The position numbers and the translations under genes are program-made. A DNA stretch of 64,000 nt, taken from Chloroflexota bacterium. Lineage in GTDB: Bacteria > Chloroflexota > Limnocylindria > Limnocylindrales > Limnocylindraceae. Positions 13,349 to 63,216 of this stretch are shown here, piece by piece. The stretch lies in contig JBDLWN010000102.1 in the NCBI GenBank assembly GCA_039804225.1, positions 3,344 through 67,343 on the forward strand, given 5' to 3'. Within the stretch, counting starts at the first letter, position 1. Each line of letters starts with the position of its first letter. Below the pieces are notes generated by a model that was given only the letters and a program-made list of their open reading frames with translations, searched no databases and was not told the origin of the DNA.

Positions 13349-14164
13349 ATGGCGCAGCGGAGAAGCACACGCGCGAAGGCTGTGCCGCCACCGATCCAGC
13401 TCACTGGACTCGGCGTGCAGTACGACTTACGACTCAGCAAGAAACGCAAGTTGCGAGATACGGTCCTACGCGATGGTCGCCACTCCCAGAGTGGCAAGTT
13501 TTGGGCACTGCGTGACGTTGACTTTCGTGTTGAGACGGGTGAATCCGTCGCGGTGATTGGACCGAACGGTGCAGGGAAGAGCACCATGCTGCAGGTTCTG
13601 GCCGGCATTCTTGAACCTTCGGTCGGTAAGGTCGAAGTTCGGGGCAAGATCGCGACCCTCTTACAACTTGGTGCGGGTTTTGATCCAGAGCTTAATGCGC
13701 GCGAGAACACGCTTCTTGTCGGGGAGTTCCTTGGGATCCCTCACAAGGAGATGGTCCGACGCGTACCAGCAATCCTTGAATTTGCTGGGCTCGGAGAATT
13801 TGCCGATGCGGAGGTGCGAACATACAGTTCAGGAATGCGCGCTCGACTTGGATTCAGCGTTGCGACCTCGGTTGAGCCCGACGTCCTACTCCTTGATGAG
13901 GTTCTCTCAACTGGCGATGCGGCCTTCATTGAAAAGTCACGGGGTCGCATAACAGAGTTGATGAAGCGAGCGCGAGCAATCGTCTTCGTGACGCACGACC
14001 TTGACTCTGCGGCTGCGATCTGCACCCGTGCGATTGAACTTGAGGGGGGCCGGATCGTTGCCGATGGACCAGCGAAGCGCGTTATTGCGGCCTACAAGAA
14101 GAAGATGGCGAAGCGTGCGACTACGGCGTCTCGCCCGGATCTGGCAGCCCGCCGCGGTAGTTGA
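13349..14164 (+). CDS. ABC exporter ATP-binding protein (Wzt/TagH/KpsT family)
   Basis: Walker A (GPNGAGKST), ABC signature (YSSGMRARLGF), Walker B (LLLDE), H-loop (FVTHD). Abuts the permease stop codon (TAG-ATG). Confidence 0.85.
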   Translation: MAQRRSTRAKAVPPPIQLTGLGVQYDLRLSKKRKLRDTVLRDGRHSQSGKFWALRDVDFRVETGESVAVIGPNGAGKSTMLQVLAGILEPSVGKVEVRGKIATLLQLGAGFDPELNARENTLLVGEFLGIPHKEMVRRVPAILEFAGLGEFADAEVRTYSSGMRARLGFSVATSVEPDVLLLDEVLSTGDAAFIEKSRGRITELMKRARAIVFVTHDLDSAAAICTRAIELEGGRIVADGPAKRVIAAYKKKMAKRATTASRPDLAARRGS

Positions 14165-14996
14165 GGATTACGAGCAGCGTTCTCACGGAATCAAGATCCA
14201 GTGTTGGCTCCACATCCGCGCTCTGGAGCACTGCGGTGGTAACCGTGTTTACCGCCACCACTCGACCCACCGAGAGGCCTCGCGGGAAGGCCGAGCGTAG
14301 CGTTGGGCTCAACTCAATCCCAGAGGTGGTGACCTCCGCTCCAACGAGCAACTGTCGCTGCGCGTCAACGTCATCAAATGCGAGTGGGTTCGCGGCACGC
14401 CCTCGAACCTGACCGATCGCACCCGTAGCGGCGACCTCAGAGGTAACCGAGAACTCTGGGTCAGTGAGGAGGCGAACCTGGCAACTCTGTTCCGATACTT
14501 GTACGACACGCCCCGCGAGTGATGCGCCTGCGCCAATGACGACATCGCCAATCTTCACGCCATCAACGCTGCCAACATCGAGAATGATGTAGCGACGATC
14601 AATCGCGAAATCTCGTGCGACCACCTGCGCCGCCACCGTGGTGAATGAGGTCGTGGCACGCAGGTCAAGAGTTGCCTGAAGCTCCGCTACTTCACGCTCA
14701 AGGCTGGCAATCCGGGCCGCTTCGGAGAGCAGCTGATCTCGTTCTTCGAGCAGCTCTGTGAGGCGCGCCTGCAGGCTTCGGATGTCGACAAAGAGCTCGC
14801 GGACTGAAGCGAAGCCTCGCCCTACCGCGGCAACGGGTTCACTCACCGAGCGCATTACCTCTCCTGCTGCGCCTTGTACCGCGAGCACTGGCGCGCTGCC
14901 AGACAAGAGGAAGAGAAGCCCGTTCAAGGCAAGTACGGCACCCACCGCAAGAAGGCCCGCTTGTGGATTACGTTTTCCGCGATCTCGGGGGAGCAT
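14121..14996 (-). CDS. mreC: Rod shape-determining protein MreC
   Basis: N-terminal TM, coiled-coil (LQARLTELLEERDQLLSE..LEREVAELQ), beta-rich C-terminal domain (GDVVIGAG...GRVV..V). Directly downstream of mreB. Start taken at the internal Met (MLPRDRGK). Confidence 0.75.
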   Translation of the reverse strand: MLPRDRGKRNPQAGLLAVGAVLALNGLLFLLSGSAPVLAVQGAAGEVMRSVSEPVAAVGRGFASVRELFVDIRSLQARLTELLEERDQLLSEAARIASLEREVAELQATLDLRATTSFTTVAAQVVARDFAIDRRYIILDVGSVDGVKIGDVVIGAGASLAGRVVQVSEQSCQVRLLTDPEFSVTSEVAATGAIGQVRGRAANPLAFDDVDAQRQLLVGAEVTTSGIELSPTLRSAFPRGLSVGRVVAVNTVTTAVLQSADVEPTLDLDSVRTLLVILNYRGGLPDPGETP

Positions 14997-15003
14997 GAAG
15001 GGC

Positions 15004-16056
15004 TTAGCGCAGTGGGCGCTGGTAGGTCTCGGGGACGAGCATCTTCTCGAGCGCCTCAACCTCTTCCAGGATGATGCCAGTGCCGCGCACAACGCAGGTC
15101 AGCGGATCATCGGCAATGCGGACTGGCATCTTCGTTTCCGCTGCAAGGCGCACATCCATGCCCAGCAGCAGCGCTCCACCACCGGCGAGAACGATTCCCT
15201 GATCCATGATGTCTGCCACAAGTTCCGGCGGTGTCTCTTCAATGGTGTCGCGCACCGCGTTCACGATTTCAATAATCGACGGCTCAAGCGCTTCTCGAAC
15301 CTGTGGGGCTGCCACCTCAACCGCGCGAGGCAAGCCGGTGAGTAGATCTCGGCCGCGGAAGGTGATCCGCTGCGAGTCCCACTCGCCGGAGTGTGCCGAA
15401 CCGACGGCCATCTTGATGTCTTCGGCGGTGCGCTCGCCCAGCAGAAGGTTGTACTGACGGCGGGCATAGGCAACGATGTTCTCATCCATCTCATCACCAG
15501 CAATACGAATGCTGCGCGCGGTCACGATGCCGCCGAGGGAGGTTACAGCGACTTCAGTAGTACCTCCACCAATGTCAACGATCATGCTCCCGTTTGGTTC
15601 ACCAACGGCGAGGCCAGCGCCGATCGCGGCTGCCATCGGCTCTTCAACGAGACGAACCCAGCGCGCACCTGCCCGAATCGCAGCGTCGCGCACAGCGCGC
15701 TTCTCAACTTCCGTCACACCAGAAGGGATGCCGATGATCATGCGGGGTCGGGCGGAGAGCCACCCACCCTGATGCACCTTGCGCACGTAGTAGCTGATCA
15801 TCTGCTCCGTCACTGCAGCGTCGGAGATCACGCCATCGCGGAGGGGTCGAATGGCGACAATGTTCGCGGGGGTCCGTCCAAGCATGCGCTTCGCCTCTGC
15901 GCCGATGGCGAGGACTTTGCGCGATTTGGTCTCTACCGCAACAACTGATGGCTCGCTGATCACCACGCCCTTACCGGCAACGTGGACGAGCGTATTGGCC
16001 GTGCCGAGGTCAATGCCGATGTCGCGGGAGAAGAGGTTATAGATTCGGTCAAGCAT
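15004..16056 (-). CDS. mreB: Rod shape-determining actin homologue MreB
   Basis: DIGIDLGTANTLV...DIGGGTTEVAV...LAGGGALL actin-fold motifs. 350 aa. Confidence 0.9.
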   Translation of the reverse strand: MLDRIYNLFSRDIGIDLGTANTLVHVAGKGVVISEPSVVAVETKSRKVLAIGAEAKRMLGRTPANIVAIRPLRDGVISDAAVTEQMISYYVRKVHQGGWLSARPRMIIGIPSGVTEVEKRAVRDAAIRAGARWVRLVEEPMAAAIGAGLAVGEPNGSMIVDIGGGTTEVAVTSLGGIVTARSIRIAGDEMDENIVAYARRQYNLLLGERTAEDIKMAVGSAHSGEWDSQRITFRGRDLLTGLPRAVEVAAPQVREALEPSIIEIVNAVRDTIEETPPELVADIMDQGIVLAGGGALLLGMDVRLAAETKMPVRIADDPLTCVVRGTGIILEEVEALEKMLVPETYQRPLR

Positions 16057-51240: not shown

Positions 51241-52007
51241 GTCTCCCCACGGTTCGCGTGCTCGTCGACGCCGAGGGCGTTGCGGAGGCAGCTGCGGACC
51301 AGATCATCGAGGCGGCGACTGCCGCCGTTGCTGCTGGCGGCGTCTTTCATCTCTGCACAACGGGGGGTTCAACTCCTGCGGCGCTCTATCGCGCCCTGCG
51401 CGAACCCTCACGAGCCGACCGAATGCCATGGGCGCAAACTCAGATCTGGTTCGGTGATGACCGCTTCGTGCCACGTGCTGACCCGCTCTCAAACGTCACC
51501 CCGCTCGACGCCCAGTTGTTGAGCGCGGGCGCCGATGGTGCCCTCTCACGACTCGCCTCCAGCGCGGTTCATCCCTGGCCCACGACTGCAGCCGATGCGC
51601 CAACCGCGGTAAGCGCCTATCTCGAGGAGCTGCGATCCGCTGGGGTGCCGCACACGCCGACGGGCTTCCCCATCTTCGACCTGCTGCTCATCGGCATTGG
51701 CGGCGATGGGCACTGCCTGAGCGTCTTCCCTGGCTCACCGCTTGCGCTCGAGCGGGCGCCGGTCGCCGCGGGGGTTCCAGCTCCAACGCACATCGAGCCG
51801 CACGTGCCGCGCCTCTCCTTCTCGCTCGGCGTGCTCGCCAGTGCACGCGCGGTGATTGCCCTCGCTCCAGGCGCCGGCAAGGCCGATGCACTCGCGCGCA
51901 TCTTCAGCGACTCCAACGCAGTGGCCGACGTACCAGCAAAGGCGGCGCTGATCCCCACGGCGACATGGCTGCTCGATACGGCCTCGGCCGTAAAGCTATC
52001 CGCGTGA
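51237..52007 (+). CDS. pgl: 6-phosphogluconolactonase
   Basis: Glucosamine-6-P isomerase/Pgl fold motifs (LCTTGGSTP, LLLIGIGGDGHCLSVFPGS). Conserved position after opcA. Confidence 0.85.
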   Translation: MSLPTVRVLVDAEGVAEAAADQIIEAATAAVAAGGVFHLCTTGGSTPAALYRALREPSRADRMPWAQTQIWFGDDRFVPRADPLSNVTPLDAQLLSAGADGALSRLASSAVHPWPTTAADAPTAVSAYLEELRSAGVPHTPTGFPIFDLLLIGIGGDGHCLSVFPGSPLALERAPVAAGVPAPTHIEPHVPRLSFSLGVLASARAVIALAPGAGKADALARIFSDSNAVADVPAKAALIPTATWLLDTASAVKLSA

Positions 52008-53128
52008 CCCGCTCGGCGCGTGCCCTTAGGCTCGGCGCTGTCGGACTGATCACCGCCCTCTCGTTGCTCCTGCACCAGCAGGCGGCGCGACTCCCGATCG
52101 ACTTCGATGAAGATGACTACATGCGTGCCGGACAGATCTTGGCCGACGAGATTCGCACTGGCAATCCTACGATCTTGCTTGAGGAAAACTACCGAATTGA
52201 GCATCCGCAGTTTGTGAAGATGCTGATCGCGTCGGTGATGCTCGGCATGGAGCCGATTCAGCGCATCCCAGAGCTCCGCGTCACAGCCAACCCCTACGAG
52301 CTGATGCATCGGCCAACGCTGGCTGCAGTACGCCGCATGGAGGTAGCGTTCGGTATAGTCGCCGTCACCGCCTTGGCGCTGGTCAGCCCGGTTGCAGGGG
52401 TCTTTCTTGCGACGAGCACCTGGGTCATCAAGTACACCAGCCAAGTGATGCTCGAATCGGTGCCGCTCCTCTTCTCACTGCTAGGCGTGGCGCTCTACGA
52501 GTTCGCACGCGGTATCTCTAGTGCACGTCGTCGGCGGCTCGCCTACATCGCCTCTGCAATTGGCATTGGCCTCGCCGTCGGCGCCAAGTATCCGTATGCG
52601 ATTGCCGGCCTCGCGATCGTTGTCGATCGCCTCCGTCGCACGCGACGCGGCGAGACACTCAGGCTCAAGGATGCGCTTGGCTGGAGCGCTATCGCTGCGC
52701 TCGCCTTCTTTGCGGTGAATCCGTACCTGTGGAGCGACCCAATCGGTCGGCTGATCGCGAGCGCCGCTTATCACCCAGAGTACGCCGCAAGCGAGCAGGT
52801 TCAATCGACTGGCTTCCCAGCGTGGCAACAGTTGATCTGGCTGATGCAGTCGGTGCCATGGCACGACGACCAGAACATTTTCCTCGTGAAGTTCGACACC
52901 TGGATGCTTCTGCTGGCGCTTATTGGCCTTGTGCCACTTGCACGCAATCGACCGGTCTATGCAATCTGGCTTGGACTCGGCGCCGTTGCGCTGCTCTTCT
53001 GGCCAACCAAGTGGCCACAGTACCTACTAACGATTGCTGTTCCCTACGCGCTCGGCGGCGCCGCCGGTCTCGCGCTGATCGGGAAGGTAGCCGTTGGACT
53101 CCCTCGTCGGCTGCTCAAGGGACGCTGA
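51965..53128 (+). CDS. GT-C fold membrane glycosyltransferase-like protein (PMT/ArnT-like), start uncertain
   Basis: TM1 followed by an acidic DE-type loop (PIDFDEDDY). Multiple TM helices. The ORF-track start overlaps pgl, so the true start is probably near 52010. Confidence 0.45.
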   Translation: MAARYGLGRKAIRVTRSARALRLGAVGLITALSLLLHQQAARLPIDFDEDDYMRAGQILADEIRTGNPTILLEENYRIEHPQFVKMLIASVMLGMEPIQRIPELRVTANPYELMHRPTLAAVRRMEVAFGIVAVTALALVSPVAGVFLATSTWVIKYTSQVMLESVPLLFSLLGVALYEFARGISSARRRRLAYIASAIGIGLAVGAKYPYAIAGLAIVVDRLRRTRRGETLRLKDALGWSAIAALAFFAVNPYLWSDPIGRLIASAAYHPEYAASEQVQSTGFPAWQQLIWLMQSVPWHDDQNIFLVKFDTWMLLLALIGLVPLARNRPVYAIWLGLGAVALLFWPTKWPQYLLTIAVPYALGGAAGLALIGKVAVGLPRRLLKGR

Positions 53129-53882
53129 TCCCCCACTTTGCACCAAGTGCGCGGTGTGCCGCCTGCAGCTCGCTCGGTGAAAGCGACCTTCCCCAAATCA
53201 CCACCTCCATGATGGTGCCGACGAAGTACTTTGATGTCCCAGCAACGAACATCCCGCCGATCCAATTCATGCTCTCTGTCGTGGTGATGTTGAACGACGT
53301 CTCCGCACCTCCGTTGTACTGAAAGCCGTCAGCCGCACCTGCGGCGGTGCGCACGGTGGTGATGGTCAGCCCGGTGGCAGTACGAGCGGTTGTGGCGCCT
53401 ACCGATTGACCGTTGCTGTACATCCGTAGGCGACCGAACTCCATGGTGATACCAGAGAAGCGCGTCCGACTCCCCATGAGCGGATGGCTGAGCCCATCGT
53501 TGCTGTGCCGAAAGACGATCATCACTGTCATTGGCTCCAGAGGGATGGCCGTTGGTAGCTGCACTGCCGCACCGCTGAACTGCAGGCCGGTCACCCCCGC
53601 TGTCACCGTTGGGTAGGGTTGATATGGTCCTGCGCTTACGGGCGCGTGTTGCGCTTGGCCCGACTTGTCGAACCAGTAGCGAAGGCGCGGCGCGAGCGCC
53701 ATGGTTCCCGCCTCTGCGGCGTCGTACCAGAGGAGGAGCCCACTGTTGATGCCACCCGGGGCACTCCACGTGCCAGAGCTGAGCGATAGGTCGAACCGGG
53801 GTGACCAGGCGGCACCCGAGGTTGCTAGGGCGATGAGCGCGAGAGGCACGACAACTCGCAACCACGAACGGTGCCGACTCAC
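53115..53882 (-). CDS. Secreted LamG/concanavalin A-like lectin-domain protein
   Basis: Signal peptide (..LRVVVPLALIALATSGAAW). Body matches the LamG jelly-roll pattern, including C-terminal F.G.I.EV.IW.R.LS..E. GTG start overlaps the upstream peptidase stop (GTGA). Confidence 0.55.
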   Translation of the reverse strand: MSRHRSWLRVVVPLALIALATSGAAWSPRFDLSLSSGTWSAPGGINSGLLLWYDAAEAGTMALAPRLRYWFDKSGQAQHAPVSAGPYQPYPTVTAGVTGLQFSGAAVQLPTAIPLEPMTVMIVFRHSNDGLSHPLMGSRTRFSGITMEFGRLRMYSNGQSVGATTARTATGLTITTVRTAAGAADGFQYNGGAETSFNITTTESMNWIGGMFVAGTSKYFVGTIMEVVIWGRSLSPSELQAAHRALGAKWGISVP

Positions 53883-54724
53883 TCTGGCCCCCAGCGCAGC
53901 GGGAGTGAGATGGTCGCATTGACGGCAGTAATGCTCCCGAGGAGGGTTACTTGGATCTGGCACTCGCTTGCGGCGGCGCCTGCAGAGAGTGACGCGAGTC
54001 GCCCCGTTGCAAGATTCGCCGCACTCCATGTGGCGGTGAAGAGGTCGGCAGAGCTCGTCCAGGTTGCGCTGCCAACTGGGCGACAGGTGCTGGTGAGTCG
54101 CAGTGATCGGGCGATGGCACTCGTCGCGTTCGGCGCGAATTGATCCGGATCAATGCGCAGCGTATTGGTGGCGCCAGCACACTCGCCCTCCACCCCCGTT
54201 GGGCACGGCGTGAGCGTCAACATCCAAGTTGCCCGTCCTCCCGGAAGGAGCTGACCGAGGGCATCGGTACCCACCAACGTTGAGCCACTCATCTCCACGC
54301 GCGCCCCTGGTGCGGAGGTGATGCTCACGTTGACGTTCCTCCCGGCACTGAACTGTGCTCCGACAAGGTCGAGCGGAAGTGAGGCGAGGAGGCCGGTGGG
54401 GATGACGGCGGCGAGCCCGCCCAACACTGCCGCATCGGCAATGCGCTCCGCATCGGGGCTGAGGCTGGCGTCACCCTGTGTTCGACGCCACCCCGCACCC
54501 CGCTGAATGACGCGGTGTAGAAGCAATTGCCCATCACTCGGTCGCTCCACCAACACCACATCGCCCACCTCACCGCCTCGCCATAGTCGCGCGGTGAGGA
54601 CCAGATCACCATCGCGAATGCTTGGCGACATTGAGTCTCCTGAAACAACGAGCATCCGCACGCCGGCAAGCTGCGTTGCAAGCAGAAGTGCCAGCGCAGC
54701 GGCACCCCATCTGGTCCGACTCAT
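53879..54724 (-). CDS. Signal peptidase I of the SipW/archaeal-ER type (S26B) with a roughly 150 aa Cys-containing C-terminal extension
   Basis: N-terminal TM. Catalytic Ser box VVSGDSMSPSIRDGDLV and downstream His region typical of SipW-like S26B peptidases. ATG overlaps the stop of the upstream TasA-like gene (ATGA). Confidence 0.7.
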   Translation of the reverse strand: MSRTRWGAAALALLLATQLAGVRMLVVSGDSMSPSIRDGDLVLTARLWRGGEVGDVVLVERPSDGQLLLHRVIQRGAGWRRTQGDASLSPDAERIADAAVLGGLAAVIPTGLLASLPLDLVGAQFSAGRNVNVSITSAPGARVEMSGSTLVGTDALGQLLPGGRATWMLTLTPCPTGVEGECAGATNTLRIDPDQFAPNATSAIARSLRLTSTCRPVGSATWTSSADLFTATWSAANLATGRLASLSAGAAASECQIQVTLLGSITAVNATISLPLRWGPE

Positions 54725-55338
54725 TGCGTCTTGTTGCGTGCCTCGAAGGTAAAGGTCACAGCGACCGAAGAGTCGGCCCCTGTTGTCGCGCTCGCCGGTA
54801 GCGTGAAAGTGAAGGTATACGCCGCACTCTTCGCCGTTGCGCCCGTCACCGCTCCTCCATTCTGTGAACTCCATGCTGTGCCGATCGGCGATGCAAACGA
54901 GCTATAGGTCGATAGCCCGTTCAGTGCGCCGCTATAGAGCGTTTCGGAGCTCTGGCCGCCAATGCTGCGGCTGATCGTTACCTGCAGAGTGGCGCCAAGT
55001 TCAGAGGGGGCGGTCGACGTTCCAGTGAGATCACTCCACAGCGCAATCTCGGTGAGGTCTGATGGTGTGGTTACTGTTGATTCGTTGAGCACTGTAATAG
55101 TCTGGGTAAACGTTGCTCCCGGGCCAATGTTGGTGAGTGTCGCGCCACCGAAGGTGAGCTGCTGCACACCGCCTGTACTCAGCGAAACGACTCCAGAGGT
55201 TGCCCCGCCAGTTACTGGCGCCGTAGCGGTAAACGCTGCGCTAGTTCTTCCAACAGTCGCCCCAATCACTAAGGCGCCCGCTACGACCACAGCCCGCACG
55301 GCGTGACGCGACGTCAAGAGAGTTCGCTCTGTGTGCAT
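54721..55338 (-). CDS. TasA/camelysin-like secreted protein with SipW-cognate-class signal peptide
   Basis: N-terminus (...VVVAGALVIGATVGRTSAAFTATAP) matches the hydrophobic core plus AAF(T/N/S) pattern of SipW-cognate signal peptides. 205 aa, Thr/Ser/Gly/Ala-rich and beta-rich like the M73/TasA family. AGGAG RBS 8 nt upstream. Confidence 0.55.
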   Translation of the reverse strand: MHTERTLLTSRHAVRAVVVAGALVIGATVGRTSAAFTATAPVTGGATSGVVSLSTGGVQQLTFGGATLTNIGPGATFTQTITVLNESTVTTPSDLTEIALWSDLTGTSTAPSELGATLQVTISRSIGGQSSETLYSGALNGLSTYSSFASPIGTAWSSQNGGAVTGATAKSAAYTFTFTLPASATTGADSSVAVTFTFEARNKTQ

Positions 55339-55397
55339 ACCGACTCCTATGAGCGGGTTATTGGGCGGGTCGTAATCCTATGGGGAGGCGCGTACTG

Positions 55398-55412
55398 GCG
55401 GGGTATCCCCGC
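55398..55412 (-). terminator. GC hairpin (GCGGGG-TAT-CCCCGC) 10 nt downstream of pstB stop
   Basis: Perfect 6-bp GC stem with 3-nt loop between the pstB stop and the promoter/RBS region of the TasA-like gene. No U-tract. Confidence 0.3.
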
Positions 55413-55421
55413 GGAGGCAGA

Positions 55422-56285
55422 TCAGCCGAAGCGGCCCGAAACGTAGTCGGCGGTGAGCTGCTGCTGTGGCGCGGTGAAGATCTTCCCCGTCTCGCCCTGT
55501 TCCACCACATAGCCGGCTCGATCGTCGCCCATCGTGAGGAAGACGGTGTAGTCCGAGGCGCGTGCCGCCTGCTGCATGTTGTGCGTGACGATGACGATCG
55601 TGTAATCACGAATCAGCTTGCGCATCAGCTCCTCAATCTGCAGCGTTGACTTTGGATCCAACGCCGAGCAGGGCTCATCCATGAGGATGACCTCTGGACG
55701 AATGGCGAGGGCGCGCGCGATGCAGAGGCGCTGCTGCTGCCCACCCGAAAGGGAGAGCCCAGGTTGATCAAGCTTATCTTTCACCTCATCCCAGAGGGCG
55801 GCGGCGCGGAGACTCTCTTCAACGAGGGCATCGATTCCTGTAGTCTCGCCGAGAAGGCGAAGCCCAAATGCCACGTTCTCGAAGATGGACTTCGGGAATG
55901 GGTTCGGTTTCTGGAAGACCATGCCGACGCGGCGGCGAAGATCAATCACGTCTGTTGCACGGGAGTGTACCGACGTGCCCTCGAAGGCGATCTCCCCCTC
56001 CATGCGGAAGCCAGGGACAAGGTCGTTCATGCGGTTGATGGAGCGGAGCAGCGTGCTCTTGCCACAGCCGGAAGGGCCGATCAGCGCCGTGACCTTGTTG
56101 CGCGGAATGGCGAGGCTTACCTCGCGCACCGCACGGAAGCCGCCATACCAGCAGCTGACGTTCTCTAGGAGTAGGGCGGGATTTGTTGATGATGTGGCAG
56201 GAGCACTGGTAGCACTCGATGGGGCGCTCGCACCCACCTGGCTTACTGAAGGCTTGGTCACTGGCTCACGCTCGTTCATCGACAT
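55422..56285 (-). CDS. pstB: Phosphate ABC transporter ATP-binding protein PstB
   Basis: Walker A (GPSGCGKST), [14 protein letters not shown], Walker B (ILMDEP), H-loop (VTHNMQQA), C-terminal ..YVSGRFG. Start taken at the internal Met overlapping the pstA stop. Confidence 0.9.
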
Positions 56286-56295
56286 AGACGGTACC

Positions 56296-57195
56296 TCACC
56301 ACTGGATCGTGCGCGACAGTCGCGCACGCAGGATAATTGCCACGAGATTGAGCAGGAACATCAGCACAAGGAGCACCAGAATCGCTGCAGCTGAGATCTC
56401 TTGGAAGGCTGCCTGTGGGCGACCCGCCCAATTGAAGATCTGGATCGGCAAGACGGTGTACTTATCTTCAAATGGATTCACGGGCACAAAGGTCACGAAG
56501 GTGACGGCCCCAATAAGAATCAGTGGTGCAGTCTCGCCGACGGCACGACCTACAGCCAACACGATGCCGGTAAGGATGCCAGGCGCCGCAGCGGGGAGGA
56601 GCGCTCGGCGCACCATCTGCCAGCGTGTTGCACCAAGCGCATATGCCGCCTCGCGCTGGCTAGGTGGCACGGCACGAATCGCCTCCATGCTTGAAATGAT
56701 CACCACGGGAAGAATGAGCAGGCTGAGCGTGAGCGCAGCTGCAAAGACCGTGCGCCCAAGGCCGAGGAGCCGCACGAAGAGCGCCAGCCCAAAGATGCCG
56801 TACACGATCGAGGGGACGCCGGCGAGGTTGGAGATGTTGATGCGCAACAGACGTGACCAGCGACCGCGTCCGGCGTACTCCTCCAGATAGATTGCGGCGG
56901 CAACACCGATGGGGAAGGTCATGATCGCAACGAGCGTCGTCACCCAGAGGGTGCCGACGAGCGCTGGCAGGATGCCGGCCTTGGCGGGGATGCGGCTCGG
57001 TGCCGAGGTGAAGAACTGCAGATCAACACTGCTCCCGCCGCGCACCACCACATCAATGAGGAGTGCCACGAGCGTGATAAGGCTGGCAAAAATCGCGAGA
57101 AATGCGAGCAGGCCAAACAGCGCATTGGCAACTTTTCGACGCGTCGTCGTCTGGCTGTTCATTCGTATACGTTCCGATAGCGCGCTACCAGCCAA
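56296..57195 (-). CDS. pstA: Phosphate ABC transporter permease PstA
   Basis: Six-TM permease with the EAA loop ([14 protein letters not shown]). Gene immediately precedes pstB. Confidence 0.85.
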
Positions 57196-58082
57196 GCGCT
57201 GATGAGGTTGAGCGTAAAGGTGATCGCGAAGAGCGTTGCCCCCACGGCGAAGAGCGCCTTGAACTGAATGCTCTCGGTTGGGGTGTCTCCAAGGCTGATT
57301 TGTACGATGAACGCGGTCATCGTCTGCACCGATTCAGTTGGGTTCAACGTCAGCTGAGGATTGGTGCCTGCCGCGAGCACCACGGCCATCGTCTCACCAA
57401 CTGCGCGACTCATGGCCAGGATCACCGCCGCAGCAATGCCTGAAAGCGCTGCCGGTAGGAGCACTCGGCGCACAGTCTCCCAGCGCGTTGCGCCTAACGC
57501 ATAGGAACCCTCTCGCAGGCCACGAGGCACGGCCCGCAGTGCGTCTTCAGTAAGCGAGGCGACGAGAGGCAGGACCAAGATGCCAACGACAATGCCGGCC
57601 GAAAGTGCCGAGAAGGTTCCAAGGTCAGGAAGAATCGTGGCCTTCAGCAGCGGGGTGATCACCGTGATCGCAAAGAAGCCGTACACGATCGTTGGGATAC
57701 CAGCCAAGATCTCAAGGACTGGCTTGATGATGGAGCGAACTCGCTGGCTCGCAAACTCGCTCATCCAGACTGCGGCAAGGACACCGAGTGGTACCGCAAG
57801 AACAAGCGCAATGAAGGCGATCATGAGTGTGCTCGTGACTAGCGGAATGACACCGAACGCATACGGAAGGATTGATGCCGACCAACGAGTTCCGGTGAAG
57901 AAATCAACGGGAGAAACTTCGCCGAAGAAGAAGAACGCTTCGACGACGAGGACGGTGATGATGCCAACGGTGGTGATGATCCCTACGGCTGCCGAGGCCC
58001 GAAGGAGGAATTCGATCAGAGCCTCACCCCTGCGGGTGGTGGCGGCGGAGTCGGGGCGATGAGCTGCCGATACGCCTGCCAC
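57159..58082 (-). CDS. pstC: Phosphate ABC transporter permease PstC
   Basis: PstC-type permease (MSEFASQRVRSIIKPVLEILAGIPTIVYGFF; [14 protein letters not shown]). Gene follows pstS. Confidence 0.85.
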   Translation of the reverse strand: MAGVSAAHRPDSAATTRRGEALIEFLLRASAAVGIITTVGIITVLVVEAFFFFGEVSPVDFFTGTRWSASILPYAFGVIPLVTSTLMIAFIALVLAVPLGVLAAVWMSEFASQRVRSIIKPVLEILAGIPTIVYGFFAITVITPLLKATILPDLGTFSALSAGIVVGILVLPLVASLTEDALRAVPRGLREGSYALGATRWETVRRVLLPAALSGIAAAVILAMSRAVGETMAVVLAAGTNPQLTLNPTESVQTMTAFIVQISLGDTPTESIQFKALFAVGATLFAITFTLNLISAWLVARYRNVYE

Positions 58083-58143
58083 AGACCCTCCTCCCGCTAA
58101 GCCGCTCTCCCTACGTACGCGGCGATCCTACCCCTAGAAGTGT

Positions 58144-58174
58144 CGACCCGGGGGCTGATGGGGCCCCCGGGTCG
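58144..58174 (-). promoter_or_regulatory. Intercistronic stem-loop between pstS and pstC (12-bp perfect GC-rich stem, 7-nt loop)
   Basis: CGACCCGGGGGC-TGATGGG-GCCCCCGGGTCG read directly from the sequence. It lies in the 122-nt pstS-pstC spacer. Confidence 0.5.
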
Positions 58175-58204
58175 TTTGAGCGTGCGTGAGGGCTCAGCGC
58201 CCGC

Positions 58205-59209
58205 TCAGTATCCGTACTTGAGTGCAGCCTCTAGGGTCGCCTTCGCGGCGGCTAGATCTGCATCGTTGAGGCCGATGTAGCCAACCTCGGCCGAGAGTTC
58301 GTTCGCGTTCTCCAGGAAGAACCGGAAGAATGCTGCGACCTCGGGTCGAGCTAGTGCTGCTACGGATGCGTAAACGAAGAGCGGTCGCCCGAGTGGCGCA
58401 TAGCTGCCGTCGTTTGCTGCATCTGCAGACGGCGCGGTGCAACCACTGCCGCCGTCGATCTCAACTGCCCGGATCTTGTCGGCATTCTCAGTCACATAGG
58501 CAAGGCCGAAGTAACCAAGCGCGTACTGCGAGCCGCTGATGCCGGTCACCAACGTATTGTCGTCCTCTGATGCGGTGTAATCGGAGCGCGAGCGCTTCGC
58601 CTCACCGTTGATCACTTCGGTGAAGTAATCAAAGGTGCCGGAATCGGCGCCTGGGCCATACAGGTCGATCTTCTCGGCTGGCCAGCCAGCGCGAACGTCT
58701 GCCCAGGTCTCGACGACTGAACCTAGATCCCAAATGGACTTGAGCTCGTCGGTGGTGAGGCAGTCAACGAAGGTGTTCTCCTTGCTCACCACTACGGCGA
58801 GTGCGTCGAGGGCAACCTTCAGTTCAATGTATTCAATGCCAGCGTTCCTGCAGAGCGTGGCCTCGGAGAGGACGTCGTCGGCAGTTCCGTCGACACCATC
58901 GTCGCCAGGCTTGTCGCTCGTCTTGATTGGGCGGGACGCGTTGTTGGCGTCCATCTCGCCTGCGCAGAACTTCTTGAAGCCACCACCGGTGCCTGAGAAG
59001 GCGACGGTGACCTGCACGCCGGAGTTCGCGTTCTGGAACTCCTCGGCAACAGCCTCGGTGATTGGATAGACGGTGCTCGAGCCGTCAATGGAGATATCGC
59101 CGGTCAGGGCTACGGTCGACGCCGACGGACTGGCGGCTGAACCGCCACAGGCGGCGATGAACAGGGCGGCCGCGGCGGCCACGCTGAGCTTCTTCATGGT
59201 GCTTTTCAT
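58205..59209 (-). CDS. pstS: Phosphate-binding lipoprotein PstS
   Basis: Signal/lipobox (MKKLSVAAAAALFIAACGG). PstS motifs (GSSTVYPI, FSGTGGGFKKF). Start set at MKSTMKK with a GAGGAG RBS upstream. Confidence 0.85.
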   Translation of the reverse strand: MKSTMKKLSVAAAAALFIAACGGSAASPSASTVALTGDISIDGSSTVYPITEAVAEEFQNANSGVQVTVAFSGTGGGFKKFCAGEMDANNASRPIKTSDKPGDDGVDGTADDVLSEATLCRNAGIEYIELKVALDALAVVVSKENTFVDCLTTDELKSIWDLGSVVETWADVRAGWPAEKIDLYGPGADSGTFDYFTEVINGEAKRSRSDYTASEDDNTLVTGISGSQYALGYFGLAYVTENADKIRAVEIDGGSGCTAPSADAANDGSYAPLGRPLFVYASVAALARPEVAAFFRFFLENANELSAEVGYIGLNDADLAAAKATLEAALKYGY

Positions 59210-59254
59210 GGTGCTCCTCTCGCCAAGATTTATTGCGAGGGGTTCCCTCGCTGC

Positions 59255-59270
59255 GGCCACATCTGTGGCC
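59255..59270 (-). promoter_or_regulatory. Perfect palindrome GGCCACA-TC-TGTGGCC in the pstS 5' region, between an AT-rich element and the RBS
   Basis: 7-bp arms with a 2-bp spacer, 45 nt upstream of the pstS start. An unusually AT-rich block (CATTAATGGTCCGTTAACAATGTTAT on the coding strand) lies 30-60 nt further upstream. Confidence 0.35.
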
Positions 59271-59357
59271 GTTAGGGGCACTCTCCGATAACATTGTTAA
59301 CGGACCATTAATGCCTTATTTCGCCAGGAGTGCTCCCTGATCACAGGGGCTCGGGGG

Positions 59358-60446
59358 CTACTCCAGCGGTAGTGCAATCCCGCTTGGTGCCCAGCTTTCG
59401 CCGATACGATCAATCCCCGCTGGGAGATTCGCGATGGCACGCTCCAGAATTTGGTTGCTGACAGATACGCCAGCGGGAAGGTTACTGCCAAGGTCCAGAA
59501 CGCCCTGCGGCGCTGGCCACACCGAGGCGTTGAACTGGTCAATGGACCAGACAAGGCTGTCGCCGAATCGATCCGTCTCGCCGCCTTGTTCAAAGACTGC
59601 CGCGCAATCAATTGGTTGATCTCGGCAGAATGCGAGTCCGTCGGTGAGCCCAATCAGGGTCAGCGCGGCAGCGATGCTGAAATCTTCGTCATCTTTGGCG
59701 CTCTTCTCCATCCACAGTGCAAGTCCACGGACGCTAGAGGTGTCACCTAGGTCAATGATGGTGATGCCATCCGGGCCAACAGGGAGCCCGCTCTCCAGCG
59801 AAATGAACTCTTGTGCCCGCGCGAGGCCGTCGTATTCCGTCAAGAAGGCCGCGGCATAGGTGCCGTCGTAGAGCGGGGTGAGGTCGATGGGCAGCGATGG
59901 ATCCGCTGGGAATTCTGCGGTCACGTTCTCGGCTCCCTCGCGTGCAAGCAGTGCAAGCAGCGGCACCTCGTCACCAACGATCCCCTGAACGAGAATTGTC
60001 GAGCCGCTCAGGTCCGCCGCGGTGGCGGCTCCTGAGGCGGGAGCGACTAGTACCATCGAGGTCCTCTGCTGCAGATTGGCGATCATGACTAACGACTCGC
60101 GTGCGGTTGCAGATGCAACGACTGCGTCGGGAGTGGCGATGTAGAGGTGAAGTCGTGTCTCGGAGGTCACGAGAGGGAATGGTGCCTCTCCAACGGTTGG
60201 GGCGATCTGGTTCAACGTGATGCCTGCTGCGGCAATCGTTTCAGAAGCGGCAGCGTAGGCGAGCGGCGCGGCCAACACATCTATGGCGCCAGGCAAATGC
60301 ACCGTTACCGAAATCTCTTTGGAGGGTCGTAGTTCGCCTGCGATAGACGACGCCGATGGCTCCACGCTTCCGCCAACCGGGGGTCGGCACGCGACTGCGA
60401 CCAGCGCAATTGATAGGAGGGCGGCGAGGTTGTGACGCTTGCTCAC
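59358..60446 (-). CDS. Putative lipoprotein / solute-binding-like protein translationally coupled to pstB of the upstream pst operon
   Basis: Signal peptide with a lipobox-like LVAVAC. 362 aa mixed alpha/beta composition. GTG start overlaps the pstB(2) stop (GTGA). No confident family assignment. Confidence 0.45.
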
Positions 60447-61333
60447 CCGAATCGCCCCTGAATGTAACCTTCGGTGAGCGCCTGCTTCGGATTGGTGAAC
60501 ATCTCCGCCGTTGGGCCGGTCTCAACGAGGTAGCCCGCCCGATCGTCATCCATTGAGAAGAAGGCGGTCTCATCAGAGACGCGCGACGCCTGCTGCATGT
60601 TGTGCGTGACAATGACAATTGTGTACTCCGCAGCAAGATCACGGATCAGCTCCTCAATCTTGAGGGTGGCGACCGGATCAAGCGCCGAGCACGGCTCGTC
60701 CATCAACACCACGCGCGGCTTCACGGCAATGGTTCGCGCGATGCAGAGACGCTGCTGCTGCCCACCTGAGAGGGATGTCCCAGGTTGCTTGAGCTTCTCC
60801 TTTACCTCGTCCCAGAGTGCTGCGCGACGGAGCGAATCCTCAACAATCCCCTCGATCTCTGACTTTGACGTTCCGCCAGTGAGGCGAAGTCCACTGGAAA
60901 CATTCTCGCTGATTGACATAGTCGGGAACGGGTTCGGCTTCTGGAAGACCATCCCAACCACTCGCCGGGCACGAACGGGATCCACATTCGCGCTGTAGAG
61001 GTCAACACCGTCAAGCGAGATCGAGCCCGAGACGGTTGCACCTGGGAGCGTCTCATGCATGCGATTGATCGTGCGGATCAGCGTCGACTTGCCGCAGCCC
61101 GATGGGCCGATGAGGGCGGTGACACTCTTCGGTCGGACCGCCAACGTCACATCCTTCACAGCGCGGAACGCGCCATAGCGTGCTGAGACGTTCTCAAGGA
61201 CCAATCGCCCAGCATCACTCTCGCTGGCGGCAGCACGAGAGGCAGCGTGCGCCGCAGGTCGCGCCGCGGCCTGGGCGAGCTCATCTTTTGCCCCTGTTGA
61301 TGTGGCTTGTGTGTTTCGTTTCTCCGTTGCCAT
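60443..61333 (-). CDS. pstB: Phosphate ABC transporter ATP-binding protein PstB (second copy)
   Basis: Same motif set as the first copy ([36 protein letters not shown], ..YIQGRFG). Confidence 0.9.
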
Positions 61334-61345
61334 GTCGCTCCTTCC

Positions 61346-62221
61346 CTACGCTGTTCTGCTATTCACGGTTCGGCCTCGCACCAGCACGTTAATAGTGAGT
61401 GCGATTGCCATCAAGACCAGCGCTGTTGCCCACGCCTGACCGATCAAAAGGTCATCGGCAGCAGCGGCATACTGGTAGATCACGATTGGCATAGCGTTCA
61501 TGGTGGTGCTGAAATCAAGCCAGTTCTCTGCGTTCGTGCCACGCGCCGTCATCAGGAGCGGCGCCGTTTCGCCCAAGGCACGGCTAAAGGCGAGGATCAC
61601 CCCGGTGAGGATTCCAGGCAGTGCGGTGCGCACGCTGACAAGGAGGGCAGTCCTCCACACGGGCACACCGAGGGCTAACGAGGCCTCTCGGATCGCCTGC
61701 GGCACCAGCCGAAGTACTTCTTGGGTAGATCGCATCATGATCGGTAGTGTGAGAATCGAAAGTGCAGCCACGGCGGCCCATCCCGAGAAGCCCAAGACGG
61801 GCACCAAGACGAGATAGGCAAACACACCCGCCACGATGCTCGGTACACCAAGCATCACGTCGATGGCCGTCTCGCCAATGGCGACAACGCGAGGCGACGC
61901 GAACTCAGAGAGGTATACCCCACCGGCAATGCCGATTGGCCCGCTAATCAGAACTGTCAATCCGGTGAGCTGAAGTGATCCCACGATCGCGTTGAGAATA
62001 CCTGGCATGGTGTCAAGCGGATTGTTCAAAAAGAACGATGGCACAAGGTATGGTGCCGACTTAATCAATACAAATGCGATGAGGGCGACGAGGGGCAAAA
62101 TCGCTAAAAACGCGGACACGCCAACGAGAGTCCGCATCACCCAACTCACTCTCTGTCGCGAGCGCTCACTGGCCGTTGGCTGGGTCAGCAACTTAGCGAT
62201 CGTGTCCATCTGCATGCTCAT
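61346..62221 (-). CDS. pstA: Phosphate ABC transporter permease PstA (second copy)
   Basis: Six-TM permease with EAA loop (EASLALGVPVWRT). Precedes pstB. Confidence 0.85.
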   Translation of the reverse strand: MSMQMDTIAKLLTQPTASERSRQRVSWVMRTLVGVSAFLAILPLVALIAFVLIKSAPYLVPSFFLNNPLDTMPGILNAIVGSLQLTGLTVLISGPIGIAGGVYLSEFASPRVVAIGETAIDVMLGVPSIVAGVFAYLVLVPVLGFSGWAAVAALSILTLPIMMRSTQEVLRLVPQAIREASLALGVPVWRTALLVSVRTALPGILTGVILAFSRALGETAPLLMTARGTNAENWLDFSTTMNAMPIVIYQYAAAADDLLIGQAWATALVLMAIALTINVLVRGRTVNSRTA

Positions 62222-63216
62222 GCGCGCCCCCCAGTAAACGCAAATCGACGGATCAGCATACGTACCGCAAGGCTAATGATCGTCGTCAACAAGAAGAGTG
62301 AGAGACCCAGGGCGGCCATAGAGCCGATGGCCACTTCTCCCGAAGCTTCGGCGATATTAGACGCGATCTTACTGGCGACCGTTTGACCGGGTTGGAAGAG
62401 CGACGTAGGGACACCCTCCGCGTTACCGATCACCATGGTGACGGCAACAGTTTCGCCAATCGCACGACCTAGAGCGAGAAGTACACCGCCGATGAGGCCG
62501 ATGCGCGCCGTTGGGAGGATGACGTCGCGAATAACTTCCCATTTTGTGGCGCCCATGCCGATGTAGCCCTCGCGAAGCGAAATGGGCACGGAGCGAATGA
62601 ACTCTCGGCTCACGGCGACCACCATCGGCAAGATCATGATCGCCAGAAGAAATCCGGCGCGGAACACACTGTCCGCTGCAGGTGACTCGGGGTCCTCCGA
62701 GAGGAAGGGGATGAACCGTCCGAATGACAGCGCGATCCACCATTCAATAGTGTCTCGGAGTCGATCTGAAAGATCGCCCGCGGCCCACAGGCCGAAGACT
62801 ACGGATGGGATAGCAGCGATCAACTCGACGACAAAAGTGAGTGGTGCAGAGATTCGTGGCGGAGCGAACTCCACGAGGTAGATCGCAGCAAGGATGCCGA
62901 TCGGTGCTGCGAACAGCACGGCAATCAGGCTGGTCGCGGCCGTTCCAAAGAGGGCGCCAAACGCGCCGTAAAGGGCGTCAACGACCTGGCCGTTCTCATC
63001 AATTGTGCCCGTGGACCAGGTTGCGCTGGTCAGAAAGTCAACTGGGCTCTGAATCGCCCAGAGGGGATTGCTATAGCCGACAAACGCAACGATCAAGCCA
63101 GCAAGGGCGATGCCGAGGGCGAGGAGACCAGTTCCAGTGATGCGACGAAAAAGACTATCAGCCGATAACCCACCTGTTCGTTGTAACTCCAGCCCTGCCA
63201 TCTCCACTCCAATCAT
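62218..63216 (-). CDS. pstC: Phosphate ABC transporter permease PstC (second copy)
   Basis: PstC-type permease (LVEFAPPRISAPLTFVVELIAAIPSVVFGLW; EGYIGMGATKWEVI). Follows pstS. Confidence 0.85.
   Translation of the reverse strand: MIGVEMAGLELQRTGGLSADSLFRRITGTGLLALGIALAGLIVAFVGYSNPLWAIQSPVDFLTSATWSTGTIDENGQVVDALYGAFGALFGTAATSLIAVLFAAPIGILAAIYLVEFAPPRISAPLTFVVELIAAIPSVVFGLWAAGDLSDRLRDTIEWWIALSFGRFIPFLSEDPESPAADSVFRAGFLLAIMILPMVVAVSREFIRSVPISLREGYIGMGATKWEVIRDVILPTARIGLIGGVLLALGRAIGETVAVTMVIGNAEGVPTSLFQPGQTVASKIASNIAEASGEVAIGSMAALGLSLFLLTTIISLAVRMLIRRFAFTGGRA

Follow-up and report, generated by a model that had tools for sequence, protein, structure and literature searches.

The tapA-sipW-tasA operon of Bacillus subtilis encodes a fibre system in a monoderm host, in which TasA is the major jelly-roll subunit, SipW is a signal peptidase of the endoplasmic reticulum (ER)/archaeal type and TapA is an accessory secreted protein. 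TasA is cleaved between A27 and A28-F29 (PMC10269814, PMC9674648), and the phenylalanine at P2' of this A/AF site (slashes mark known or predicted cleavage points) makes the protein a substrate of SipW rather than of LepB (PMC10269814). The N terminus of mature TasA, residues 28 to 38, is the donor strand of the fibre, and the N terminus of TapA mimics this strand and nucleates fibres; tapA and sipW overlap stop to start (PMC9674648, PMC10151520). Here we describe three adjacent genes, A, B and C, in a 64,000-nucleotide stretch (the window) of contig JBDLWN010000102.1 from a Chloroflexota assembly (GCA_039804225.1). We consider it probable, if not strongly so, that this triad is a TasA-superfamily module for a secreted fibre or matrix with its own dedicated peptidase. 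It shares with the B. subtilis operon a major jelly-roll subunit (putative for A) with an A/AF-type signal end, an ER/archaeal-type signal peptidase encoded in the same operon, start-stop overlaps, a monoderm host and an accessory secreted protein whose N terminus resembles that of the major subunit.

Other described loci have a similar composition. The sipW-calY1-bc1280-calY2 locus of B. cereus and the sipW-bsaA locus of C. perfringens combine a dedicated SipW, one or more TasA/camelysin subunits and a lineage-specific accessory, which indicates that the accessory slot is evolutionarily plastic. They differ from the present locus in a second camelysin paralogue, BC1280 or isopeptide cross-linking, and neither a LamG partner nor a peptidase fusion has been reported for them. 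In the AbpA/AbpB bundling pili, AbpX and Tafi loci, filament genes are clustered with a signal peptidase I, a predicted tip or adhesin, minor subunits and membrane anchors; TasA-superfamily loci of this composition, in which the signal peptidase I is dedicated, are on record for a range of bacteria and archaea, and AbpX-like genes have been reported in Chloroflexota (bioRxiv 10.64898/2026.01.04.697558). The peptidases that accompany AbpX either contain ten membrane helices or come with DUF5305 accessory subunits, whereas B has a single helix and a fused soluble β-sandwich. TasA homologues are found largely in monoderms, and surveys with PF12389 have already turned them up in Chloroflexota (PMC9245690).

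The combination of a TasA-like subunit, a dedicated peptidase and a tip or anchor has thus been published (PMC9245690; bioRxiv 10.64898/2026.01.04.697558), so the kind of system is already known, and the distinct dedicated-peptidase module proposed in a preliminary description of this DNA stands as a variant of a published general concept. Particular to this locus are a subunit family that evades the current models, the order subunit, peptidase, accessory, which departs from tapA-sipW-tasA as had been noted, a LamG_3 accessory where other loci have TapA, a second camelysin or BC1280, and the fusion of the peptidase, via a subunit-like linker, to a novel β-sandwich. Two of its features, a peptidase linker that mimics the N terminus of mature A and a LamG lectin instead of TapA, look new.

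A divergent TasA-superfamily protein

Protein A is a divergent member of the TasA superfamily that is missed by the curated models, on the combined evidence of transitive profile matches and fold. Its family is very small, since only 35 proteins at E ≤ 1e-3 emerged when 1.84 billion cluster representatives were searched exhaustively with its profile. The distant matches, proteins of about 200 amino acids with E values from 5e-18 to 1e-3, share the pattern T-x-AAFTD ... PG-x-S ... LA-x-x-L-x-V ... TF-x-WE-x-R, and A carries the hallmark motifs AAF[TS], PG and F-x-FEA-R-N. For the transitive test, 23 sequences were aligned, 20 of them distant profile matches; PF12389 (Peptidase_M73/camelysin) was matched by 14 of the 23 (best E value, 5.4e-10), NF046066 (TasA) and TIGR04088 (SipW-dependent signal) by 8 each and TIGR04090 (BsaA) by 3. 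An AlphaFold (AF2) model of A had a mean predicted local distance difference test score (pLDDT) of 73.7, with a β-sandwich core at about 80 to 96 and disorder over residues 1 to 46. When this model was compared with the PDB by Foldseek, B. subtilis TasA took both the first place (5OF2; E 8.1e-4, probability 1.00, the only match at E ≤ 1e-3) and the second (5OF1). The earlier view of A as TasA/camelysin-like was therefore borne out by transitive profiles and fold, and not by a direct match to a curated model.

The string GRTSAAFTATAP, read in A by the preliminary description, was found at residues 30 to 41. Among A homologues, A34 and F36 are invariant and T32 and A35 nearly so, and by analogy with TasA the signal peptide is probably cut at TSA/AFTATAP, with Phe at P2'. 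The SipW-cognate type that had been assigned to this signal peptide held with respect to the TSA/AF ending and the aromatic P2' residue; the TIGR04088 model of the SipW-cognate signal matched neither A nor C. The disorder of residues 1 to 46 in the monomer model agrees with the free donor strand of TasA (PMC9674648). Compared with TasA, A is shorter, is too divergent to score with PF12389 or TIGR04088 and lacks the C-terminal extension. We regard it as the putative major fibre subunit.

The matches of distant A relatives to Pfam Peptidase_M73, camelysin, would also suit a secreted metalloprotease of the camelysin type. The M73 name is historical, TasA and CalY being structural fibre proteins (PMC5879678, PMC9674648), and the 171 residues of mature A include no His and no Cys (Ser and Thr make up 31%), which leaves no plausible zinc site. 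A zinc metalloprotease is excluded by this composition, and we hold the camelysin-protease reading to be scarcely credible.

Some of the distant A-profile matches were large multidomain proteins. P0250 (579 amino acids) has a TasA-like N-terminal region followed by RCC1 repeats, while P0255 (2750 amino acids) and P0264 (870 amino acids) contained 14 and 7 matched stretches, respectively, which suggests tandem arrays of TasA-like domains.

The peptidase with its fused domain and the LamG protein

Judged by its sequence, B is a membrane-anchored S26 signal peptidase of the ER/archaeal (Ser-His) type with intact catalytic residues. In the S26 family, a His in place of the Lys of bacterial P-type enzymes marks the ER/archaeal type. 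The best solved relative of B by sequence was human SEC11A (7P2P), with whose motifs SGSMEP, VHRV and KGDN the residues Ser31 (SGDSMSP), His70 (LLHRV) and Asp85 (GDAS) of B were aligned; these three residues and Asp91 were invariant in 17 and in 25 homologues. The SGDSMSP box occupies residues 28 to 34, and the assignment of B to the S26B type was upheld by this alignment. Pfam recognised both Peptidase_S24 and Peptidase_S26 in B, each barely over threshold. SipA/LepA of Streptococcus pyogenes, a signal-peptidase homologue required for pilus polymerisation, serves as a chaperone for sortase-dependent pili and is not known to retain the catalytic residues. B differs from it in that Ser, His and Asp are invariant, and the locus contains neither a sortase nor an LPXTG motif.

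The extra C-terminal domain of B, which had also been claimed, appeared as a confident β-sandwich of about 150 residues in a structure model built with the sequences of distant B homologues. It contains four conserved Cys (174, 182, 214 and 255) and is without known relative. The linker that precedes it is variable except for F125, which is invariant. SipW of B. subtilis carries a C-terminal membrane segment, which B lacks, and has no counterpart of the fused β-sandwich.

Protein C is predicted from its sequence to be a secreted, lectin-like protein of the LamG_3 (concanavalin A-like) type, in agreement with its earlier description as a LamG protein. PF13385 (Laminin_G_3) matched residues 185 to 239 at E 2.7e-6 and 28.0 bits, above the gathering cut-off of 27.6, with a match that spans only the C-terminal third of the model, and it also matched 13 of 15 C homologues drawn from all clades. 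The matched residues include IMEVVIWGRSLSPSEL, which we take to be the motif of the C-terminal strand of LamG_3. At the end of the signal peptide (SGA/AWSPRFDLSLSS), A24 and W26 are invariant. The C-family profile retrieved nothing significant from PDB sequences, and TapA/YqxM-type models matched neither C nor the C-terminal domain of B. No TapA/YqxM homologue was found at the locus, and the accessory is LamG_3 lectin-like here, whereas TapA has an Ig fold.

A shared motif and a proposed model of assembly

In each of the three proteins, at the end of a hydrophobic stretch, a small residue is followed two positions later by an invariant aromatic one: TSA/AFTATAPVTGGATSGVVSLST in A, VGA/QFSAGRNVNVSITS in the linker of B and SGA at the signal end of C. 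The likeness between A and B is clearer in another clade, where TSA/AFTATQPV of A stands against AAA/SFTATLPISISLTS of B. On these sequences, the linker of B resembles the N terminus of mature A. In a profile-profile comparison by hhalign, the linker and C-terminal domain of B aligned with the TasA-like family at a score of 24.2 (P 0.005), in register across the AxF, PG and LAxxLxV motifs. After column shuffling, scores averaged 11.2 and did not exceed 19.4, and none of the 200 shuffles reached the real score (three runs ended with an hhalign error); the reversed profile also scored 11.2. The sequence comparison is suggestive of a TasA-derived module in B. The same method gave no relation between the C-terminal domain of B and C or between C and A (P 0.36 to 0.97).

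In the fibre model that we favour, A would be exported via Sec, and its signal peptide would be removed after Ala34 by the co-encoded B, which as an ER/archaeal-type enzyme is expected to tolerate an aromatic residue at P2'. Mature A, beginning AFTATAP, would consist of a flexible N-terminal segment and a TasA-like jelly-roll core and, if the analogy with TasA holds, would polymerise by donating its N-terminal strand to the next subunit. B may also cut C after Ala24, at a signal end of the same type (A/AW) that is followed by a short strand-like segment, and C could then fill the accessory role that belongs to TapA in Bacillus, by nucleating or capping the fibre, by forming a tip adhesin or by acting as an anchor. 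As an anchor or initiator close to the membrane, the C-terminal β-sandwich of B probably tethers the peptidase physically to the fibre; alternatively, it may be released as a second minor subunit. Chloroflexota have been inferred to be monoderm, with Sec and Tat as the sole export routes (PMC6169038), and a monoderm Sec/Tat host agrees with the known spread of TasA systems (PMC9245690).

A more far-reaching version of this model, which we regard as doubtful, makes B a signal peptidase fused to a minor fibre subunit. The linker (A/QFSAG..VNVSITS) would be a site at which B processes itself, or would supply a donor strand of its own, so that nucleation of the fibre, or its anchoring at the membrane, would fall to the maturing enzyme as well, while C caps the distal end as an adhesin. 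If true, the peptidase-subunit fusion would complete a three-gene pilus system, free of chaperone and sortase, in a monoderm bacterium.

Several results weigh against a TasA-type fibre module. For A, Pfam gave no match at E ≤ 1 and NCBIfam none at E ≤ 10 save the irrelevant TIGR03769 (E 4), and the A-family profile retrieved only noise from PDB sequences (E 0.15 to 0.25), TasA not being among the hits. The template modelling score (TM-score) in Foldseek between the A model and TasA was only 0.41 to 0.43, a modest value explained in part by the 46 disordered residues that are counted in it. The best NCBIfam model for B, TIGR02228 (sigpep_I_arch; 3.4e-8), gave 33.5 bits against a cut-off of 51.85, and the SipW equivalog model NF046067 gave 13.3 bits against a cut-off of 190, so that B is to be called ER-type in mechanism and not a SipW orthologue. 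With HMMER profiles of the A N terminus, B and C did not rise above background (ranks 11 to 525 among the 750 open reading frames of the window), and the claim of three donor strands therefore depends on the short motif and one profile-profile score. Planktonic, uncultured cells have no obvious need for a biofilm matrix, and the fibre itself is a prediction from genes.

The planktonic habit (PMC6169038) would suit a non-filamentous surface complex, in which the lectin C and the jelly-roll protein A are held at the membrane by the C-terminal domain of B and serve in substrate or particle binding, or form an envelope layer, with no donor-strand polymerisation. The lectin-like nature of C, the membrane anchor of B with its extracytoplasmic β-sandwich and conserved Cys pairs, and the shortness of A, whose 171 mature residues lack the C-terminal extension that stabilises TasA fibres, point in the same direction. 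All characterised members of the TasA superfamily (TasA, CalY, AbpA, AbpX, Tafi and threads) are donor-strand filaments, however (PMC9674648, PMC9245690, bioRxiv 10.64898/2026.01.04.697558), and A retains a disordered N-terminal segment outside the fold. We consider the surface complex rather unlikely.

Conservation and genomic setting of the triad

Candidatus Limnocylindria, an uncultured group, abound in the plankton of lake surface waters, and we know of no description of their surface structures. A profile scan of one genome per species (185,579 species) found A-family proteins at 26 loci, 23 of them in freshwater Chloroflexota metagenome-assembled genomes of the Limnocylindrus/Aquidulcis group in this class; one further locus was labelled Thermoflexus hugenholtzii, likewise a Chloroflexota name, and the other two had uninformative titles. 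The names attached to A homologues were solely Candidatus Limnocylindrus or "Chloroflexi bacterium" metagenome-assembled genomes. Contrary to the preliminary description, the genome is not of actinobacterial type, since its close relatives all belong to Candidatus Limnocylindrus or Aquidulcis of the Limnocylindria.

The three genes have been kept together. Of 31 related loci from 26 species-level genomes, 29 had A, B and C side by side in the same order, and the remaining two were cut by contig ends; such an arrangement is not due to chance. Intergenic gaps in these loci ranged from -16 to +26 nucleotides, with exact -4/-4 overlaps in 17 loci. In all clades the triad lies downstream of the pst operon and converges on pgl-opcA-zwf, and this position was constant even where identity had fallen to about 50% in A, 37 to 47% in B and 35 to 44% in C. 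The G+C content of the locus (0.59 to 0.66) matches that of its flanks. Shared synteny across clades and this base composition mark the triad as vertically inherited core DNA of Candidatus Limnocylindria, not as the accessory insertion for which it had been taken. What could suggest a horizontally acquired accessory island is the location between unrelated metabolic operons and the variation among genomes in the glycosyltransferase-like neighbour described below and in the genes between pstB and A. The location next to pgl does not change between clades, the species scan placed the family in Limnocylindria only, and mobility genes are absent; a mobile or accessory island is excluded by the synteny, and we regard it as highly improbable.

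Core status beside housekeeping operons would also fit a general housekeeping type I signal peptidase, with A and C as abundant secreted or surface proteins that are merely co-transcribed with B and take no part in dedicated fibre assembly. No second S26 gene was found in the window, though 64 kb without another peptidase says nothing on the rest of the genome, and Sec and Tat are the only export routes of Chloroflexota (PMC6169038). Both A and C have conserved signal ends of the form A-x-[FW], aromatic-P2' sites of the TasA/SipW type, which general bacterial peptidases cut poorly (PMC10269814), start-stop coupling has been kept across about 50% sequence divergence, and the pairing of TasA-like with SipW-like genes, on which TIGR04088 is based, recurs in unrelated lineages. 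We therefore regard a housekeeping role as unlikely.

An instance of this pairing is locus L035 (GCA_003550425.1, PUKE01000289.1, positions 96-2540), in which the distant TasA-like protein P0254 is encoded beside a divergently transcribed gene for a SipW-like peptidase of 241 amino acids, whose C-terminal tail is rich in Pro; next comes a Big_1-domain protein with a weak match to the TasA-like profile. It is an independent case of subunit, peptidase and accessory clustering. The contigs of the other distant TasA-like matches were mostly too short for gene context.

A conserved TasA-type module suggests that Limnocylindria build an extracellular fibre or surface assembly, which would matter for how they attach to particles, aggregate and interact with grazers and phages. 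It extends the TasA superfamily to a lineage missed by current Pfam and NCBIfam models, puts a LamG lectin where related systems have their accessory or tip protein and offers a natural peptidase-β-sandwich fusion with a subunit-like linker. Being compact, the triad would lend itself to tests of the coupling between processing and nucleation in donor-strand fibres.

The three minus-strand genes are translationally coupled, being chained by ATGA and GTGA overlaps, as first described and as the open reading frames and the sequence confirm (Table 1). Upstream, the reading frame of B stays open as far as 54874 and that of C as far as 54029; these longer versions are unsupported, since independently called homologues have 281 to 282 and 255 amino acids, respectively, and begin at the overlap codons. 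A consensus scan of positions 52800-56500 found no promoter and no convincing terminator.

Table 1. Positions of the triad and its parts in the window
Feature	Residues	Position	Strand	Details	Basis
Gene A		54721-55338	minus	205 amino acids, ATG start	open reading frame table and sequence
A signal peptide	1-34	55237-55338	minus		Arg-rich N-region and hydrophobic core at residues 13-29
Gene B		53879-54724	minus	281 amino acids, ATG start	open reading frame table and sequence
B N-terminal membrane helix	3-19		minus		structure model
B catalytic β-domain	about 24-110	54395-54655	minus		alignment to SEC11A and model (residues 24-108)
B linker	112-128	54341-54391	minus	conserved A-x-F-[STA] motif (VGA/QFSAG)	pLDDT <50
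B C-terminal β-sandwich	129-281	53882-54340	minus		confident in model
Gene C		53115-53882	minus	255 amino acids, GTG start	open reading frame table and sequence
Shine-Dalgarno AGGAG of gene A		55344-55348	minus	5 nucleotides before start codon	sequence
ATGA, A stop/B start overlap		54721-54724	minus		sequence
GTGA, B stop/C start overlap		53879-53882	minus		sequence

Upstream of the triad, on the same strand, lie two successive phosphate-type ABC transporter sets. The first (55422-59281, minus) is pstS-C-A-B, and the second (59358-63216, minus) comprises an ABC ATPase, two permeases and a 362-amino-acid protein without a Pfam match. Only 83 nucleotides lie between pstB and gene A; as no terminator was detected, read-through from pst is possible. 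In the more distant Limnocylindria clades (L001, 4836-7845; L004, 4797-7873), three genes, for an NMT1-like binding protein, an Orn/DAP/Arg decarboxylase and a thymidine kinase, lie between pstB and the triad; in the window, unlike in these loci, pstB directly adjoins the triad, and the flank has thus been rearranged while the triad remained intact.

At the other end, a GT-C/PMT-like glycosyltransferase gene (51965-53128, plus) is convergent with C and overlaps its 3' end by 14 nucleotides; its PF02366 match (E 1.5e-4) is slightly under the cut-off. About 10 close relatives have this gene between C and pgl, and it is absent from other close relatives and from all distant clades. A fixed partnership with the triad was rejected, as the gene is a variable indel found in some close relatives only. 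Given the Ser and Thr content of A, O-glycosylation of A is conceivable.

No further A-like or B-like open reading frame was found in the window. The mreB gene noted in the preliminary description is present (15004-16056, minus; PF06723, 1e-136), with mreC beside it (14121-15092, minus), and the two agree with the rod or cylinder shape behind the genus name Limnocylindrus.

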